Positions 4,176 to 21,345 of a DNA stretch of 64,000 nucleotides are shown here, piece after piece. Every line of letters starts with the position of its first letter. Positions within the stretch are counted from its first letter, which is position 1. A program made the translations under genes and the position numbers. This DNA comes from a virus. The DNA is taken from positions 19,052 to 83,051 of the IMG/VR virus record IMGVR_UViG_3300050150_000084, one strand, 5' to 3'. The notes beneath the pieces were generated by a model, which saw only the letters and a program-made list of their open reading frames with translations, was not told where the DNA came from and searched no databases.

Positions 4176-5227
4176 CACAACTGAAGAAAGGTGCGTTTCT
4201 TACCGACATCCACTTCGGCAAGAAGTCCAACTCACCAATACACAATCAAGACTGTCTAAACCACCTGCGGTGGTTTTGTGAGCAAGTGCGGGCCGATCCA
4301 ACGATCGATTACGTTGGGTTCTTGGGTGATTGGAATGAAAACCGTAGCGCCATCAACCTAGCAACTCTGACGTATTCGTATACTGGCGCAAAAATGCTAA
4401 ACGACTTAGGTCTACCAGTTTACTTTGTTGTTGGGAATCACGACCTGTATCATCGACATACGCGAGAAATCTACTCCGTCCTACCATTCCAGGAGTTTTC
4501 GAATTTTCGTGTGATCGATACCCCAACGATTATTCCAGAAATAGGGGATGGGGCCTTTTTCAGTCCGTATCTATTTCACGAAGAGTACGACAAGCTGGAC
4601 GAGTATCTGAGTCTACCGTTTTGGGCAGGACACTTCGAATTTCAAGGTTTCCGCGTTACCGGTTACAGCATGGTAATGCAACACGGACCTGACCACAAAA
4701 AGTTCGCGGGCCCAGAACACATTCTGTCAGGCCATTTCCATCAACGACAGCAGAAGGACAACATTGTATACATCGGCAACACATTTCCAATGGACTTTGG
4801 TGACGTTGGTGATTACAGTCGAGGTATGGCCGTATACGACCATACCATCCGCGATGTAACATTCCAAGATTGGCCGGACGCTCCCCTTTACCTCCGGTTC
4901 AAGGTGTCAAAGATCCTGGATGGAGGTATTATTATACGTCCTCAGTCACGGGTGAAATGTGTCTTAGATGAGGAATTGTCACTTGAAGAGACAAACAATC
5001 TACGGGAACTAATGATGAAGCAATTTGAATTGCGTGAATTCACATACGAAGAGCCCAAAGATGCTGTCGAAGCCATCAGCGGAACGGAAACGGACGTTGA
5101 TGTTCCTGAAGCATCGGGTGATACAGACGGAACGACGATTGATGACTTGATTGTTCAGATGCTCTCAGACATCAAATCAGACCAAATTGATAACGCCCTA
5201 CTAATACAACAATACCGGCGCCTCTAA
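4172..5227 (+). CDS. gp47: Recombination nuclease, Mre11/SbcD-like (gp47)
   Basis: Metallophosphoesterase motifs TDIHFG, LGD, VGNHD, GHFH. Confidence 0.93.
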   Translation: MTQLKKGAFLTDIHFGKKSNSPIHNQDCLNHLRWFCEQVRADPTIDYVGFLGDWNENRSAINLATLTYSYTGAKMLNDLGLPVYFVVGNHDLYHRHTREIYSVLPFQEFSNFRVIDTPTIIPEIGDGAFFSPYLFHEEYDKLDEYLSLPFWAGHFEFQGFRVTGYSMVMQHGPDHKKFAGPEHILSGHFHQRQQKDNIVYIGNTFPMDFGDVGDYSRGMAVYDHTIRDVTFQDWPDAPLYLRFKVSKILDGGIIIRPQSRVKCVLDEELSLEETNNLRELMMKQFELREFTYEEPKDAVEAISGTETDVDVPEASGDTDGTTIDDLIVQMLSDIKSDQIDNALLIQQYRRL

Positions 5228-6985
5228 ATGATTGAGTTCATTTCCATCTCCCTACGCAATTTCCTGTCGTACGGGAACAACTTAACCACAGTACCCCTCA
5301 ACATCAGCGGAACCACTCTGATTGTTGGGGAGAACCTAGACCACATCGACGGCGGTAGTAACGGCGTTGGTAAATCAACAGCCGTGCTCACCGCTTTGGT
5401 GTATGTCTTGTTTGATAAATCACCCCGCAAAGTCCCTGTTGACAGCCTCGTCAACAACGTCAACAAAAAGCAGATGGAAGTGATCTTGGAGTTTGCTGTC
5501 AATGGCAAGCATTACAAGATCCACCGGATGCGCAAGATGAAGGCTGGTGCAGAGGGTAACAAGGTATTCTTCTACGAAGACGGCAAGGACATCACTGTTG
5601 TACCTAATGGTGATACCAACAAGATTATTGCCCAAACAATCGGTATTCCTGCTGATATGTTTGAGCAGATCGTTGCATTCAAGGCCAGCACAGAAGGCTT
5701 TCTGGATTTGCCCAGCCCGAAGCAAAAAGAGTTCATTGAAGAGATTTTTGGTATTACTGTCATTTCCGACAAGGCTGACAAGCTGCGTACATTGATCAAG
5801 GATACCAAGAAGGAACTCGTGCACAAAAAGAGCACGATTGATCAACTAATTCGTGAACATGAGCGGCATTCTACTCTTATCGAAACAGCCAAGCGTCGCG
5901 TTTCGGATTGGGTGATTCAAAACGCCAAAACCGTTGCAGATTTGAAAACCAAGCTGGCGAAGATTGACAACATTGACTTCGACGCTGAGCGTGAACTTCA
6001 CGCCAAAGTTGCTGAAGTACAATCTGCGATTCGTGAACTGCGATCAGAGCTCAAGCTTGAGGACCGCACAATTGCTGATCTGAATACCGCACTGCGTAAG
6101 ATTGCTGAGGAGTTGATCCATCTGCGGGATAACAAGTGTCCGTACTGCATGCAGGGACACCCCGACGCCGCAACAAACATCACTCGTCTGTCAACCCAAC
6201 AAATTGCACTGAACGAGGAGTTAGCAGAGGCCACAGAGGTGCGTCAGATGATCAGCCGTAAGATCACACAACTCGAGCGGGAGGCAGAAACGGTGTCTGC
6301 GAAGATTACTGTGCCTAATTTGACTGAGTTGTTGGCCATCCGCGATCAAGCATCTTCGTTCCGACAGCGTATCGCTGAAGGTGAAGTGGCGCAGAATCCG
6401 TATGAGGAACCTCTGCAAGAGCTGCTAGACGTCAAGCTTGATGAGGTTGATTATGAGCAGGCTAACGCTCTAGACAAGGAATTGAAACATCAAGACTTCT
6501 TGCTCAAGCTCCTGACGAAGAATGATAGTTTCGTTCGTAAGGCATTGCTGAATAAGAACCTGCCGTATCTGAATAAGCAGTTGAAGAACTACCTAGCGGA
6601 TCTCGGATTGCCACATTCTATTGAGTTCACCCATGAGCTTGACGTTATGATCACCAAACTTGGTAGTGAGTTCGACGTCGGCCTGATGTCTACGGGGCAA
6701 CGCGCTCGCATTCACTTTGCGCTATCTTTGGCGTTTCGTGATGTGCGGTCTCGTCTGTACGGTCGAACAAACCTTACTGTATTCGATGAAGTGCTAGATT
6801 ATGGCCTGGATGCTGGCGGAGTTACTGCTTGCGCATACTTGATCAAGCATCTAGCTCGCACACATAAGACCTCTACTTTTGTGATCTCTCACCGTGCTGA
6901 AATTGACGGTATGTTCGACCGCAAAATGACGGTTCAACTCAGCAAGGGGTTCAGCGGAATTCTCCAGGAACCGCTACCAGCATAA
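5228..6985 (+). CDS. gp46: Recombination ATPase, Rad50/SbcC-like (gp46)
   Basis: Walker A GSNGVGKS, coiled coils, zinc hook CPYC, signature MSTGQ, Walker B VFDE, H-loop ISH. Confidence 0.93.
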   Translation: MIEFISISLRNFLSYGNNLTTVPLNISGTTLIVGENLDHIDGGSNGVGKSTAVLTALVYVLFDKSPRKVPVDSLVNNVNKKQMEVILEFAVNGKHYKIHRMRKMKAGAEGNKVFFYEDGKDITVVPNGDTNKIIAQTIGIPADMFEQIVAFKASTEGFLDLPSPKQKEFIEEIFGITVISDKADKLRTLIKDTKKELVHKKSTIDQLIREHERHSTLIETAKRRVSDWVIQNAKTVADLKTKLAKIDNIDFDAERELHAKVAEVQSAIRELRSELKLEDRTIADLNTALRKIAEELIHLRDNKCPYCMQGHPDAATNITRLSTQQIALNEELAEATEVRQMISRKITQLEREAETVSAKITVPNLTELLAIRDQASSFRQRIAEGEVAQNPYEEPLQELLDVKLDEVDYEQANALDKELKHQDFLLKLLTKNDSFVRKALLNKNLPYLNKQLKNYLADLGLPHSIEFTHELDVMITKLGSEFDVGLMSTGQRARIHFALSLAFRDVRSRLYGRTNLTVFDEVLDYGLDAGGVTACAYLIKHLARTHKTSTFVISHRAEIDGMFDRKMTVQLSKGFSGILQEPLPA

Positions 6986-7031
6986 GAATCACTGCCATTT
7001 TACCCTCTTAAATAGGTTTAGAGAGGGTAAA

Positions 7032-7514
7032 ATGGCACTTGTACTGGGAATTGACCAATCGTATACTAGCTGTGGATACGTATTGTGGAACACTGAATCA
7101 CAGCAGATGGAAGAATTCGGACGGTTTACAACCGAAAAAACGGACACTACATACGCCCGTGCGTTGTCAACCGCAAAGAAAATCTGTGAACTGATCAAGA
7201 AACATAATCCAACGATGCTTAAAGCAGAAGGATTGGCTTTCGGAATCAGAGGGGATGCAACTCGAGACTTGGCTGGATTGTTGTTTACGATCGTCAATCT
7301 TGTTGCTTACGAGCACCCCACTATCGTATTCAAGGAATACGCACCTACTTCGGTGAAAAAGAAGGCCACAGGAAGTGGCAAGGCTGATAAAAAGGCAATG
7401 ATAGAAGCACTCTCAGACGACGTTCGACAGAAGTTTTTAGACGCAGGCTTTAAGAAGACTACCGGTCTCACGGATTTGACCGACGCGTATTGGATTGCGC
7501 GCATGCCGGACTGA
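7032..7514 (+). CDS. ruvC: RuvC-like Holliday junction resolvase
   Basis: VLGIDQS, AEGLAF, PTSVKKKATGSGKADK, DAYWIA; late box TAAATA at 7009-7014. Confidence 0.88.
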   Translation: MALVLGIDQSYTSCGYVLWNTESQQMEEFGRFTTEKTDTTYARALSTAKKICELIKKHNPTMLKAEGLAFGIRGDATRDLAGLLFTIVNLVAYEHPTIVFKEYAPTSVKKKATGSGKADKKAMIEALSDDVRQKFLDAGFKKTTGLTDLTDAYWIARMPD

Positions 7515-7529
7515 AACAATACAGTATAA

Positions 7530-7842
7530 CTAGAAACGTCAGGTGGTGATACCCTTCTCCCACCGGTGTAGGAACAGAGTGCGTGGAGCCGCACTAACGA
7601 GCCTGTGGTATAGAGCCCACCAAAGTTGACCACCTTGGGAGTTATGGCCACTTTTCATACAATTGTTCACTTCTGTGAACCGTGAGGTACTTCCAATCAG
7701 CTACGAAAACGCGGGGCAGGGATTGATAATTCCCTTTAACCGCGTTACTTCACCGCTAGAGATTGTTGAGTGAAGGGTACCGAACTCAACAATCTCTCCG
7801 GCTGCCAAGCCGGTCTCTCTATGATGCCTGCGTGGAGCTGGC
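7530..7842 (+). ncRNA. Candidate highly structured non-coding RNA of unknown class
   Basis: Intergenic ~310 nt with at least 7 hairpins, including a perfect 14-bp stem (7758-7771/7784-7797). Three loop-to-distal pairings: 7550-7557/7772-7779, 7609-7615/7817-7823 and 7635-7642/7689-7696. G-U pairs favour the + strand. Confidence 0.6.
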
Positions 7843-8070
7843 TTAGTATTGCGGATACATCTTCTTCGATTCCACCTCGAGCCGATCCTCCACGAACTCA
7901 CTTACCATACTTCGCTCAAATGACGACATGGACATCATGGTTTCGTATTGAACCGCTCCGCGCATGAAATACACCAGTTGAATGATCGATTTGATAATAC
8001 GCCTCCGGTCATTGACCATTGAGGAGAACATTTGCTGCTTCTCCTCAATCGTTCCAGATCGGAGGGTCAT
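7843..8070 (-). CDS. Small baseplate-hub/tail assembly chaperone partner (gp51-like); possibly also the -1 frameshift extension of the upstream gene
   Basis: 75 aa; ATGA overlap with the upstream stop; preceded by a T8 run and no clear SD. Confidence 0.6.
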   Translation of the reverse strand: MTLRSGTIEEKQQMFSSMVNDRRRIIKSIIQLVYFMRGAVQYETMMSMSSFERSMVSEFVEDRLEVESKKMYPQY

Positions 8071-8855
8071 GAAAAAAAACTTACTGGATTTGCAGATACC
8101 TGGACGTGGGCCTCCTCACCGCAATCAGGACACTTTTGGCGTGATGTGAAATCCACACCCCACTGACTGACCATTTGTGCCGCACCTTCAATCTTGCGCT
8201 TCCACCCAAGCGGGATGGACTTAACCCACTCACGGATTTGCTGCTTATCCGTCACGTCATCGACGCGTCGAATCACGTTGGACAGCGTGTCCAACACCAG
8301 CTGCTCCGCCTCATTAATGCTGAGCTCGTCCTCTTTCATTAGAGCAGTTGTTTGATACAACTCAATCACATTGTCGTACGTCAGTGGCTTCAGGGTAACA
8401 ATCTGACCATTTGGTACCGTACACGTGTATTCTTGGTTAATTGACGTTGGGTCAACTACCTTGGTTTCACGGATCATTTGTTGAATGTCGACGCTAAATG
8501 TGTGGGTCTTTGCGTTAGCGCAATCGTGGGTATATGTGACTTCCATCGCATCGCCAAACGACACAGAGCGCAAACACACCATCAGAAAGTCCACATCACG
8601 CGTCAACAGCTTCTCAGGCTTGATCACTTGTGGAATGCACCGAGCGAAAATCTCCATGATTGCACGGCCAGACAGCAGCTTGTCTGGTGTCGCCAGCACA
8701 ATTTCATCCACAGCGGTCATCGGATACACCTCAACTTCACCCTTCGTCACGCCTTCGGCAAGTTCTCCGTCCTCGTAGAATAGACCTTGGGATGGCAGAC
8801 GGAATGTAGCACCGGGGATGCGGATTTTGGCTAGTAGTGGATTGGTGTTGGACAT
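8067..8855 (-). CDS. Baseplate hub assembly protein / tail chaperone (T4 gp26-like)
   Basis: LPSQGLFY..VYPMTAVDE..DVDFLMVCLRSVSFG; CxxC near the end (CPDCG); terminal FFS; divergent from the tape measure gene. Confidence 0.75.
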   Translation of the reverse strand: MSNTNPLLAKIRIPGATFRLPSQGLFYEDGELAEGVTKGEVEVYPMTAVDEIVLATPDKLLSGRAIMEIFARCIPQVIKPEKLLTRDVDFLMVCLRSVSFGDAMEVTYTHDCANAKTHTFSVDIQQMIRETKVVDPTSINQEYTCTVPNGQIVTLKPLTYDNVIELYQTTALMKEDELSINEAEQLVLDTLSNVIRRVDDVTDKQQIREWVKSIPLGWKRKIEGAAQMVSQWGVDFTSRQKCPDCGEEAHVQVSANPVSFFS

Positions 8856-8876
8856 AGTTTCTCCTTATGTGTGTGG

Positions 8877-8906
8877 TATTTAATACAGGGATCAATAACG
8901 TAAATA
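8877..8906. promoter_or_regulatory. Divergent pair of late promoters (gp26-like on -, tape measure on +)
   Basis: tattta at 8877-8882 (TAAATA on -) and taaata at 8901-8906. Confidence 0.6.
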
Positions 8907-18369: not shown

Positions 18370-21345
18370 ATGAGCACTTACGACATCCAACTATCCGCGC
18401 CAGGAATCTTGCGTTCAGAGGCGTTAAATGTTACAATCAAGTTTGACCGAACGGGTCCAAATACTGGACGTATTAGTTGGAACATTCCAGCCCCTGCTGC
18501 GGGCTGCGATGCTGAAACTCAAGCATATTGTGGTATTGTTCTCACGCTGAACACTACTCCTGCGTCCGCCTCAACGTCCCCAAAGAACGGCACGGTATAC
18601 AGCTCCGACCCCACTGGAGACTCCAACCTGTTCGCAGGTGATAAAATCGGTGATGCTTATGTTGTTGGCGCATTCTATGGTGACCGCGTCACCACTATGC
18701 TGGACATTACTGGGTTGCTGCCAAATACAGCGTACTTTGTGGCTGGATACCCCGCTGACTGCCAACACCGGTACTTTGTGGAGGGCGTTCACGCTTATTC
18801 AACTGAGTTTGTTAACCGCGGCACGGACGGTACACGCGGTACTCAAATCGCATTCCTAAAGCCCACGACAATTCCCACGGGCGTGCAGCCTACAGATTCC
18901 ACAGGACTACCGCTACTAACGTCACCTCTGCCTCCTGCACAGCCACAGCCAGCGATATACAATTTCACGATTCAGCTTGGAGTAGATCCCAAGCCACTTC
19001 GTCCTCTCTACGTTGGCGAATGTAATCTCGTTGCGCCAACGTATACCATTAATGTCGCAAGCGCAAATGCTCAAGATTACCAATCGCTGGTTGCAGAAAT
19101 CAACAAACAGCTAGCGTTGATCGGTAATGCTCCACAAGGTCCTACATCGCCTGGCACAAATCATTATTACTGGAACTCCCAACAATCAAAACTGTTCCAG
19201 TGGAATGGCACATCGTACACTGAGATTGCGTGTTTGGTCGGCATATCCCAACCAAATATTGTTGCCGACGGCACGTATTGGTTTAATCCGACCACAAACG
19301 TGCTGCAAGTATGGCAAACGAACGCTTGGGTAATAGTTACGGTATACAACAATCCACTCGACCCTGCCGCACCTGCTGCGGACAAGTCGTATTGGTATGA
19401 CGGTACGGTAGTTCATCTATGGAATGGTTACGCGTGGTGCTCAATTAGCACCACAGTCCAAGCTACAGACCCTTCGCTTGCTGTTGCTCCTGTTGGTGGG
19501 TCGTTTTGGTATAACACAGTACTGAACCGGTTGTACCGTTGGAATTCCGCGCTTGAGATGTGGAATGCAGCCGAATTCATGGAATCGGACGTCAACCCAA
19601 CACAACTACAGCCAGGAGCATTCTGGTTTGATTCGTCCACGAATACCCTGAAGCAGTTAGGCATTCCTAATGCTGGATGGAATGTTGTTTCTGGGGTTTC
19701 CATTCGTGAGGTTGAGCCGTCTACGCCTGCACCGGGCAAGATTTGGTACAATCCGATCACGGAAAACCTCTACATCCGCGATGCAAGCAACACATCCTGG
19801 AATGAGAACGACGTTATTACGTTCCCAAATGATCCTACCGTGCGAGGTTCGTGCGATGCGTGGTGGAATACCGTAGCCGGCATCCTATTTGTGTGGGATC
19901 AACTACAAAATTCGTGGGTTGCTGTAACAAACTTTGTAGACCAACCAAACGATCCCGCATTGGCACCAACGTTCGCGGATGGTTCCGCTTGGATTGACAC
20001 GGATACAGGCAAGCTGTACATTTACGGTAACAACTGCTTTGCGGAGCAGGCTGTAATCACCTCGCCGACTGATCCACGAACTGCGGTAACAGTTGGTTCC
20101 GTTTGGTACAACGGCAATGTGTGGCACGTACGTACGGTATCTGGATGGTCTCCAATTACGCCAGTCGCATTTACAACAGACCCAGCTTTGATGCCTATTG
20201 GCACATTCTGGTACAACACTCCATTCAACGCCCTTCAGCAATGGAACGGGGCGGCGTGGCAAGCCGTAGTATACAACGCTACCCCACAACCACCAGTCAA
20301 GGGCGCGATGTGGTATGACACCACTACGAATATTCTGAAGCAATGGAACGGAACAGCGTGGGTAGCTGCGACACCGCCAGCTACAGTTGAACTGGATTGC
20401 AACGGCAATCTTCTGTTCACCGACAACACGGTTGGCAGCACCTCCATGGTTCGCATTAAGGACGGCGACCTATTCAGCTCAATGACAACTCCACCAACGC
20501 TTGGAGACTTGTCTCCAGGTACGGACGGGGCATCCAGTACACCAACGTACATGGAAATGGGCATTGGTACTGACGGCTCAGTGGCAATGCGTGAGCAGAT
20601 TGGCATGGATATTCGGTACGAATTAGGCTATCCAAATGTTGACGTTGAAATCACAAAGGAGCAGATGGATTACGCAATCTCACGAGCCCTTCGTGAGCTG
20701 CGCATGCGTTCCGGCGTTGCGTACAAGCGCGGATTTTTCTTCATGAGCATCAAGGCGAATGAGCAGAAGTTCTTCCTGACCAACAAAATATCAGACATGA
20801 ACAAGATTGTTGATGTGCTGGGCGTGTACCGCTTAACGTCTTCATTCTTGTCGTCAGCACACGGCGCCGGCGTTTACGGCCAGATTGTGATGCAACATAT
20901 GTACAACATGGGCACTTTTGACCTATTGAGCTACCACTTGATGGGCGAATACACCAAGTTGATGGAAATTCTATTTGCTGGACGCGTAACCTACACATGG
21001 AATGAGCAAACACGTGAATTGTTCCTGCACCACCGCTTCAGCATGGCTGAGCAGATGGTTGCAATTGAAGCAACGATTGAGCGGACGGAGCAAGACATTA
21101 TGTCGGATCGTTACGCCAATCCGTGGATTCGTCGCTATGCGGCTGCTATGTGCCGTTTGATGCTTGCAGAAACGCGCGGCAAGTTCTCTACACTCCCTGG
21201 AGCGGGTGGCTCAATTACACTCAACGCAGGTGAATTGCGTCAAGCTGCTCAGCAAGAAATTGAAGCTTGTCTGCAGGAAATTGATGACTACATCGCCGAT
21301 AAGCCGGATGAGTACGGCATGGGTGCACACTTCGTATTTGGATAA
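18370..21345 (+). CDS. gp13: Neck protein gp13-like with a large N-terminal extension of Trp-rich repeats
   Basis: C-terminal ~250 aa (RYELGYPNVDVEIT..RRYAAAMCRLMLAETRGKFSTLPG..G) is gp13-like; 11 W-[YF]-[ND]..L..W repeats; late box at 18338-18344. Confidence 0.8.
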   Translation: MSTYDIQLSAPGILRSEALNVTIKFDRTGPNTGRISWNIPAPAAGCDAETQAYCGIVLTLNTTPASASTSPKNGTVYSSDPTGDSNLFAGDKIGDAYVVGAFYGDRVTTMLDITGLLPNTAYFVAGYPADCQHRYFVEGVHAYSTEFVNRGTDGTRGTQIAFLKPTTIPTGVQPTDSTGLPLLTSPLPPAQPQPAIYNFTIQLGVDPKPLRPLYVGECNLVAPTYTINVASANAQDYQSLVAEINKQLALIGNAPQGPTSPGTNHYYWNSQQSKLFQWNGTSYTEIACLVGISQPNIVADGTYWFNPTTNVLQVWQTNAWVIVTVYNNPLDPAAPAADKSYWYDGTVVHLWNGYAWCSISTTVQATDPSLAVAPVGGSFWYNTVLNRLYRWNSALEMWNAAEFMESDVNPTQLQPGAFWFDSSTNTLKQLGIPNAGWNVVSGVSIREVEPSTPAPGKIWYNPITENLYIRDASNTSWNENDVITFPNDPTVRGSCDAWWNTVAGILFVWDQLQNSWVAVTNFVDQPNDPALAPTFADGSAWIDTDTGKLYIYGNNCFAEQAVITSPTDPRTAVTVGSVWYNGNVWHVRTVSGWSPITPVAFTTDPALMPIGTFWYNTPFNALQQWNGAAWQAVVYNATPQPPVKGAMWYDTTTNILKQWNGTAWVAATPPATVELDCNGNLLFTDNTVGSTSMVRIKDGDLFSSMTTPPTLGDLSPGTDGASSTPTYMEMGIGTDGSVAMREQIGMDIRYELGYPNVDVEITKEQMDYAISRALRELRMRSGVAYKRGFFFMSIKANEQKFFLTNKISDMNKIVDVLGVYRLTSSFLSSAHGAGVYGQIVMQHMYNMGTFDLLSYHLMGEYTKLMEILFAGRVTYTWNEQTRELFLHHRFSMAEQMVAIEATIERTEQDIMSDRYANPWIRRYAAAMCRLMLAETRGKFSTLPGAGGSITLNAGELRQAAQQEIEACLQEIDDYIADKPDEYGMGAHFVFG

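Follow-up and report, generated by a model that had tools for sequence, protein, structure and literature searches.

The gap between ruvC and a baseplate hub gene

The gap examined here lies at 7515–7842 (328 nucleotides, nt), between two convergent genes of a 64,000-nt stretch of viral DNA, which we call the window (positions 19,052 to 83,051 of IMG/VR virus record IMGVR_UViG_3300050150_000084). The record is 174.6 kb long and is rated 50% complete. The gap is occupied by a structured element, probably an RNA of the + strand, that reaches slightly into the end of ruvC. Its neighbors are as follows (aa, amino acids):

7032..7514, + strand: ruvC, encoding a RuvC-like Holliday junction resolvase of 160 aa (phrog_159, E 2.7e-27); its stop codon lies within helix H1
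7843..8070, − strand: small conserved gene of 75 aa, converging on the RNA; homologues 47–62% identical adjoin the element at the related loci L021, L037, L045, L047 and L048
8067..8855, − strand: gp26-like baseplate hub gene (phrog_150, E 9.5e-20)

Read from 5′ to 3′, with helices numbered H1 to H10, the predicted parts of the element are these:

7510..7525, + strand: H1, a hairpin of 4 base pairs (bp), ACUG/CAGU, with the conserved loop AAACAA(U)A, overlapping the ruvC stop codon; 4/4 pairs compensatory, 92.9% of cells paired
7526..7541, + strand: single-stranded conserved linker AUAACUAGAAACGUCA (family consensus AUAAcUAGAAACG), an invariant block in alignments A2, A4 and A6
7542..7564, + strand: H2, GGUGG/CCACC plus GA/UC, with the conserved loop UACCCUUC (family consensus AyACCCUUnCU); 5/5 pairs compensatory
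7570..7604, + strand: H3, with outer AGG/CCU, the invariant internal loop AACAG / AACGAG, inner 6-bp AGUGCG/CGCACU and loop UGGAGC
7605..7620, + strand: H4, GUGG/CCAC, with loop UAUAGAGC; 4/4 pairs compensatory
7622..7654, + strand: H5, with a weak outer AAAGU/ACUUU, the conserved internal loop UGACCA, closing pairs C7633-G7647 and C7634-G7646, and the conserved 11-nt loop UUGGGAGUUAU
7665..7680, + strand: H6, a GUUCAC/GUGAAC hairpin whose sequence differs among members; 5/5 modelled pairs compensatory, 100% of cells paired
7681..7705, + strand: H7, CGU(G)AG/CUACG, with the nearly invariant loop GUACUUCCAAUCAG
7706..7716, + strand: conserved run AAAACGCGGGG, in which C7712 covaries with G7700 of the H7 loop
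7708..7746, + strand: H8, in the window's form AACGCGG/CCGCGUU plus AGGGA/UCCCU; neither register nor sequence is constant in the family
7758..7797, + strand: H9, a perfect 14-bp hairpin with loop GAAGGGUACCGA
7798..7813, + strand: H10, a CCGGCU/AGCCGG hairpin with UCUCUCU after it, which may act as a weak terminator
7814..7842, + strand: 3′ tail UCUCUCUAUGAUGCCUGCGUGGAGCUGGC; the block UAUGAUGCCnGCnUGGA is common to the window, L022, L035, L046 and L021

A preliminary description of this gap had named seven hairpins, at 7542–7564, 7578–7595, 7605–7620, 7665–7680, 7708–7746, 7758–7797 and 7798–7813. All seven are found at these positions, the sixth with 14 perfect pairs, and four conserved helices go beyond that list: H1 (7510–7525), H3a (the outer helix of H3, 7570–72/7602–04), H5 (7622–7654) and H7 (7681–7705).

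Across the family the H2 helix also occurs as GGCAG/CUGCC, GGACG/CGUCC and GGAG/CUCC. The inner helix of H3 has compensatory changes at 6/6 pairs and 97% of cells paired, while A-U, G-C and G-U pairs all occur in H3a. The closing pair 7633–7647 of H5 is found in three forms (C-G in three sequences, G-C in eight, A-U in three), and the outer H5 helix is paired in just 8–14 of 16 sequences. Pair 7683–7703 of H7 is U-A in five sequences and C-G in ten; the remaining H7 pairs are invariant. Near-invariant unpaired blocks lie between the helices: AAACAA, AUAACUAGAAACG, ACCCUU, AACAG/AACGAG, UGACC, UUGGGAG, CUUCCAAUCAG and GYGGGG. Past GYGGGG the sequence is variable and the anatomy recurrent (H8, a long hypervariable H9, a small hairpin and the tail). 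Most members have a hairpin after GYGGGG, in a register that is not fixed; H9 is long (8–24 bp), nearly perfect and hypervariable in sequence, often with the loop motif GAACGAAGUGA; and CCGCC/GGCGG stands at the H10 position in L022. As predicted from these comparisons, the element is made of a conserved 5′ core of ~200 nt with short covarying helices (H1–H7, 7510–7716) and a variable 3′ part comprising H8, H9, H10 and the tail. Within the H9 apical loop of the window (7772–7783), the hexamer GGUACC is its own complement and might allow dimers to form through kissing loops; the corresponding place in L209 is taken instead by a small additional hairpin.

Covariation and the extent of the family

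The lead to relatives came from freshwater metagenome contigs in public runs, which matched only the gap pieces 7563–7608 and 7622–7703 and had unlike flanks. IMG/VR was scanned with exact patterns taken from conserved pieces and later from alignments, and matches were filtered by nhmmer and two covariance models; our member counts are counts among the matches listed in these scans. About 17 are true members (L021, L022, L023/L024, L035, L037, L041, L042/L047, L043, L044, L045, L046, L048, L049, L209 and L142). A covariance model additionally revealed a short version of the element in L002/L012, and the other pattern matches fit only the pattern itself. In blastn comparisons of window positions 6900–8900, L024 and L023 match only at 7511–7731 (83%), with flanking genes unaligned, and L022 and L021 match solely within the gap. 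The flanking RuvC proteins are 38–52% identical, compared with up to 81% for the RNA core. The RNA is kept while its flanks diverge, indicating that its conservation is independent of them.

The carriers, T4-like jumbo myoviruses of ~350 kb found in leaf litter, soil and fresh water, form an uncultured clade. In a tree of the copies, that of the window groups with L024 (99/96 support) and two copies from the same genome (L044, L048) fall together; the rest is without resolution. Searches with the RuvC protein in IMG/VR and JGI metagenomes returned only loci of at most 50% identity, whose gaps did not align. GenBank phages gave no match by blastn with the window and two divergent members, and the nearest cultured jumbo phages, XacN1 and RAS14, were negative with both covariance models, apart from one weak match antisense inside a coding gene. 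A pattern scan of one genome each from 185,000 prokaryote species produced 48 matches, none extending beyond the pattern; we judged these to be chance, their number being close to a rough estimate of our own for the chance expectation. In run X13, one low-depth contig (window 7622–7940) resembles L024 upstream of 7622 and through 7673, and the window from there into the 75-aa gene; either the strain is recombinant or the assembly joined two sequences across the identical 34-nt block 7622–7655.

The gap folds at −115 kcal/mol, compared with −95 ± 5.8 kcal/mol for dinucleotide shuffles (z −3.45; 0/100 shuffles as good). RNAalifold, run on MAFFT alignments of the family, recovers H1, H2, H3a/b and H4, with 13/22 pairs compensatory among eight sequences, as well as H6 and H7. 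In a model-based alignment of the 5′ domain (14 distinct sequences), 93.5% of cells are paired versus 67.3% in shuffles, double-sided changes occur at 20/22 pairs, and the covariation score is 0.616 versus 0.193, figures whose independence the shuffle statistics overstate, the ~17 members being related and the counted alignments having been fitted to the models. With partners slid, only 36–46% of cells pair. For H6/H7 (16 distinct sequences) the corresponding values are 99.4% and 81.4%, with double-sided changes at 6/10 pairs. A coding reading is excluded by the loop insertions or deletions of 4 and 8 nt that distinguish close homologues, as in the H3b loop.

Homologues are thus found in independent genomes, with compensatory changes preserving their helices, as is generally asked of a conserved structured RNA. 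The earlier proposal of a structured noncoding element lacking an Rfam match is borne out on each count (homologous loci, strong covariation of helices, no Rfam match), and we regard a real conserved structured element as very likely from the alignments. A functionless hairpin-rich spacer, its structure due to chance in noncoding DNA, might seem to find some comfort in the equal single-sequence folding of both strands and in two of three proposed long-range pairings being at chance level. It has a negligible probability when set against conservation among phages with such diverged flanking proteins, and is effectively ruled out by the gap-limited blastn conservation together with the covariation of the 5′ domain and H6/H7.

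Contacts between the helices are another matter. The preliminary description saw a multi-pseudoknot RNA, a picture that mostly dissolves in the family: two of its three loop pairings and a long-range helix are not conserved, and the third shows no double-sided change. The loop UACCCUUC (7550–7557) is an exact complement of GAAGGGUA (7772–7779), but this H2–H9 pairing is absent in L024, L043, L049 and L044 despite their identical H2 loop, where the best complements are 5–6 nt and scattered; an analogous 7-nt match of the H2 loop in the H9 loop occurs only in L047, and 7% of shuffled downstream sequences contain an 8-nt complement. UAUAGAG in the H4 loop (7609–7615) does have its complement CUCUAUG (7817–7823), but partner positions are inconsistent elsewhere. 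A 7-nt complement to this loop appears in 17% of shuffles, and by eye the tails of L035 and L046 hold two compensating and two disrupting changes. The proposed CGGUG/CACCG helix has no counterpart in the family, its 3′ half lying in nonconserved sequence. Likewise, the repeat UGCGUGGAGC at 7580 and 7829 is present, but it is only partly kept (UGGAnC), and a direct repeat cannot pair.

The third pairing, UUGGGAGU (7635–7642) with ACUUCCAA (7689–7696), fares better. It would join the two best-conserved loops (UUGGGAG/CUUCCAA), and its central five pairs are possible in 13–15 of 16 sequences. The loops are nearly invariant, each change seen affects one partner only (A to G facing U, or G to A facing U), and L048 and L209 each break one pair; we consider the contact plausible. 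An all-against-all covariation scan for tertiary pairs was swamped by clade-specific changes, and the sole candidate kept from it is 7700–7712, which is G-C in eight and A-U in five of 13 sequences with zero exceptions. This pair clashes with the window's own helix H8a, which points to a tertiary or alternative pair.

Genomic contexts, copy number and strand

At least ten of the ~17 members lie directly 3′ of ruvC, facing the small open reading frame (ORF) and the baseplate hub gene, with H1 overlapping or abutting the ruvC stop. RuvC orthologues were found upstream of the element in L037, L045, L047, L048, L209 and L142. In three members an NMNAT-Nudix (NatV-like) gene follows shortly after the element, in L049 a MazG-like gene does so (L044 seems to have the same arrangement), and in L041 the element comes 550 nt after a set of five tRNA genes of its own strand. 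L023/L024 place it in a 2.2-kb ORF-poor stretch of smaller contigs. The proteins upstream at the non-ruvC loci have no BLAST similarity to RuvC. The one complete genome (G001; 350 kb with terminal repeats) carries the element exactly twice, once per main context, and a 54%-complete record has two copies as well. In the window's own half-complete record one copy and no second was found; an L022-type copy occurs at comparable depth in the same leaf-litter samples and could be the second copy that the record lacks.

These contexts weaken the link to the RuvC nuclease that had been suggested, since the RNA is also found next to NMNAT-Nudix genes, a MazG-like gene or a tRNA array. If the element served the neighboring RuvC-fold nuclease as its partner or guide, it would be analogous to HEARO/omega RNA of IscB and the reRNA of TnpB, likewise structured RNAs beside a gene for a RuvC-fold protein, and the many members immediately 3′ of ruvC, with H1 at its stop, are what such a role would predict. 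The protein, however, is a 160-aa resolvase-type RuvC (phrog_159) and not a TnpB- or IscB-sized effector, and second copies in the same genomes are far from ruvC. The element has no match to HEARO/omega RNA models, and no variable guide-like segment was seen beside the scaffold except the self-paired H9, an arm for which, as an antisense guide, no other copy or target was found in the phage record. A guide function appears most improbable.

The element always points the same way as its upstream gene, and at the NMNAT-Nudix loci it is co-directional with both neighbors. In 12 of 17 members the better fold is that of the + strand (summed energies −1729 versus −1647 kcal/mol), the unpaired conserved blocks are A-rich on the + strand, and on that strand the short version in L002 finishes with a hairpin and a U-run. 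These four observations favor the + strand, and the element is probably, on present sequence data, an RNA of that strand. G-U pairs, which had been thought to favor the same strand, do not mark one; the conserved helices contain 254 Watson-Crick, four G-U and three A-C pairs among 276 cells.

Almost purely Watson-Crick pairing, together with equal folding of the two window strands and the adjoining junction resolvase gene, is also what one would expect of a DNA-level element folding as single-stranded or cruciform DNA, such as an origin of replication, a site for recombination or packaging, or a resolvase substrate. In T4, one origin, ori(uvsY), is situated close to baseplate genes 25/26. This reading is nonetheless very unlikely in view of a multi-helix anatomy with asymmetric A-rich invariant loops, which is typical of RNA, of the better folding of the + strand across members and its fixed orientation relative to the transcription of its neighbors, and of its presence at loci without ruvC and at two unrelated places in the complete genome.

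A cis-acting 3′ untranslated region or insulator, whose hairpins would end or stabilize the converging ruvC and baseplate transcripts or control a downstream gene, is suggested by the exact fit of the element to the convergent gap, with H1 overlapping the ruvC stop and H9 and H10 at the 3′ end. The versions in L002, L045 and L209 end with clear hairpin plus U-run terminators, which in L045 and L209 lie 3′ of the element and are bidirectional, and at three loci the element precedes the NMNAT-Nudix gene. A terminator, however, has no need of a 200-nt core with invariant loops, and the same core is found between co-directional genes and after tRNAs. At the NMNAT-Nudix loci ~100 nt, including a block common to L022 and L035, separate RNA and gene, and no terminator is called in the window's gap. 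We consider a cis-acting role of this kind unlikely. Nor do the contexts resemble those of a riboswitch or cis-regulatory leader: no same-strand gene follows the element in the window and at least nine other loci, and the other copies precede unrelated genes (NMNAT-Nudix or MazG-like).

Several features of the surrounding sequence were recorded along the way. The block shared by L022 (~6080–6150) and L035 (~5000–5090) between RNA and NMNAT-Nudix gene consists of UACUAUAUAC and the hairpin UGAUGGAUAGACCGUCA, and could serve that gene as promoter or operator. tRNA genes occur 4–5 kb downstream of the copies in this context (L022 9978–11902, L035 8445–10390), and both sets include the anticodon CUA (amber suppressor type; ARAGORN label 'Pyl'). 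The ORF-poor stretch at L023 4130–6358 (= L024 1–2500) extends for ~2.2 kb around the element without an ORF of at least 100 aa in the standard code, and may hold further noncoding elements; reading TGA or TAG as sense gave no clear repair of ORFs. At more distant RuvC loci a small CxxC...CxxC zinc-ribbon ORF after ruvC replaces the RNA (L001 3529–3726, L004 3481–3766, L005 3767–4044). Among the window's own genes, the 75-aa gene has no Pfam or PHROG match, the L037 orthologue of the gp26-like gene matches Pfam T4_baseplate, and the gp46-like protein shares just ~34% identity with its counterparts in cultured jumbo phages (XacN1, RAS14 and PA5oct). On the minus strand at 8067–8079 the gp26-like ORF ends ...AGT TTT TTT TCA TGA, and the ATG of the 75-aa ORF overlaps this stop (ATGA), beside a run of eight T. 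Bearing on the idea of a −1 frameshift fusion of the two, homologues keep two separate ORFs, which overlap in L021; the L209 ORF likewise ends ...NPVSFFM.

Relation to known RNAs and a probable role in trans

Rfam 15 (4,227 models, including GOLLD, ROOL, pRNA, HEARO, OLE, raiA, RNase P, tmRNA [transfer-messenger RNA], group I/II introns and self-cleaving ribozymes) has no match at gathering threshold in the whole window, none at E ≤ 10 in 7400–7950, and none on the element at E ≤ 1 in eight homologous loci. ARAGORN found no tRNA or tmRNA genes in the window, and in the homologous loci it placed tRNAs only outside the element. A full-text search of the literature found no description of this RNA. 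The family matches no catalogued RNA family; its novelty is that no known family fits, a loose category of orphan large phage RNAs being already in existence.

GOLLD and ROOL, which measure roughly 580–800 nt, invite comparison. Like them, the present RNA is a large multi-helix phage RNA known mainly from environmental sequence, with highly conserved unpaired nucleotides; one of its members (L041) is beside a tRNA array, and loop–loop contacts are plausible. It differs in having no sequence or structure match to either, in being ~330 nt long, half their size or less, and in occurring in T4-like jumbo phages as one or two copies at fixed sites. GOLLD and ROOL are large 'ornate' RNAs of phages and prophages that form cages, as seen by cryo-electron microscopy (cryo-EM; PMC12286853). 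The only complementary loops of the window that would be relevant to cage-type self-assembly (H2/H9 and GGUACC) are not conserved.

The pRNA of phi29 is also a phage-encoded structured RNA, and here too loops could pair in trans (in the window, GGUACC in the H9 loop and the H2/H9 complement). The present RNA is larger, however, has no Rfam pRNA match or visible link to packaging genes, and has complementary loops that are window-specific. Phage T4 makes small stable RNAs, species 1 and 2 (RNA C and D), that are encoded in its tRNA region and processed from longer transcripts. These too are stable noncoding RNAs of unassigned function in a T4-type phage, but they are shorter and lie within the tRNA cluster, and the blastn search of GenBank phages with the present RNA gave no match. 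Finally, pieces of the element could be among the 8,495 unnamed motifs of the DNAVirus_X set of candidate viral RNAs, predicted by covariation from IMG/VR intergenic regions (PMC10690425); these motifs are 29–151 nt, such that none covers the whole RNA.

In our favored interpretation, which we hold to be moderately likely, ~7508–7842 on the + strand would be a member of an uncatalogued family of large (~330–400 nt) trans-acting structured noncoding RNAs. An RNA acting in trans fits better than a terminator, a leader, a RuvC guide or a DNA element, given covarying helices around invariant loops, one or two copies per genome, varied neighbors, and the lack of a same-strand gene downstream in the window. 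Within this interpretation a scaffold or ribonucleoprotein is a possibility that we put forward tentatively over its rivals, mainly since no catalytic signature or ligand-linked gene set emerged.

A number of observations weigh against this interpretation. The strand question is the first: the minus strand of the gap has the same folding z value, the two strands of the window folding equally well, and this, with the near-absence of G-U pairs, means that structure alone does not fix the strand. No promoter was found in the window. The near-late box TATAACTA that had been pointed out at 7525–7532 is there, but such boxes are not enriched (29 with at most one mismatch in the window, 25 expected); neither it nor ATAACTAGAAAC is a recurrent promoter-like motif in the window, in which TATAAATA occurs twice, and the linker AUAACUAGAAACGUCA does not recur as a motif either. 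At the other end, the terminator scan calls none in the window's gap, H10 being followed by UCUCUCU only; transcript ends, strand and stability are what we infer. The core is not universal, as L142 keeps H1–H5 without the H7 block and the L002 version is just ~150 nt. To these may be added the related membership behind the shuffle statistics, the support of tertiary contacts by invariant or single-pair patterns, and the sequence evidence indicating no particular partner or activity.

An RNA acting in trans could nevertheless be pictured as follows. H1 overlaps or abuts the upstream stop and no promoter was found, suggesting that the + strand RNA would arise when transcription of the upstream gene reads through, with trimming afterward. 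Probable features of the compact tertiary fold that the invariant loops would build are a contact of UUGGGA (H5 loop) with UUCCAA (H7 loop) and the G7700-C7712 pair; the 3′ hairpins would stabilize or end the transcript. The RNA would act as a stable scaffold binding a phage or host protein, or would self-assemble, and would not be a regulator of the neighboring gene.

A ribozyme, in which the invariant internal loops or junctions would form an active site for self-cleavage, processing, or action on another RNA such as tRNA precursors, would account for an unpaired-nucleotide conservation that is very high for an RNA of such size. It could also accommodate the covarying G7700-C7712 pair outside the nested helices and the member just downstream of a tRNA array. 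No ribozyme model of Rfam 15 matches even at E ≤ 10, however, and no cleavage-site signature could be named, making catalysis quite unlikely. A bolder version of the trans-acting RNA, which seems to us unlikely, would be a new class of 'ornate' jumbo-phage RNA with two diverged copies per 350-kb genome, its invariant loops serving as a catalytic or ligand-binding core or as multimer contacts. In a multimer, complementarity of the kind present in the window (8 nt) and L047 (7 nt) might let the variable apical loop of H9 bind the conserved H2 loop in trans.

Few large structured RNAs have strongly conserved unpaired nucleotides, and those that have been solved (ribozymes, riboswitches, GOLLD, ROOL) each revealed new biochemistry. 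No cultured phage with the RNA was found, so experiments must start from synthetic RNA, and the ~200-nt core is compact enough for probing, cryo-EM and activity screens. The family is clearly under selection, at two fixed places in giant phages, and it offers a testable entry into the noncoding RNAs of jumbo-phage infection.

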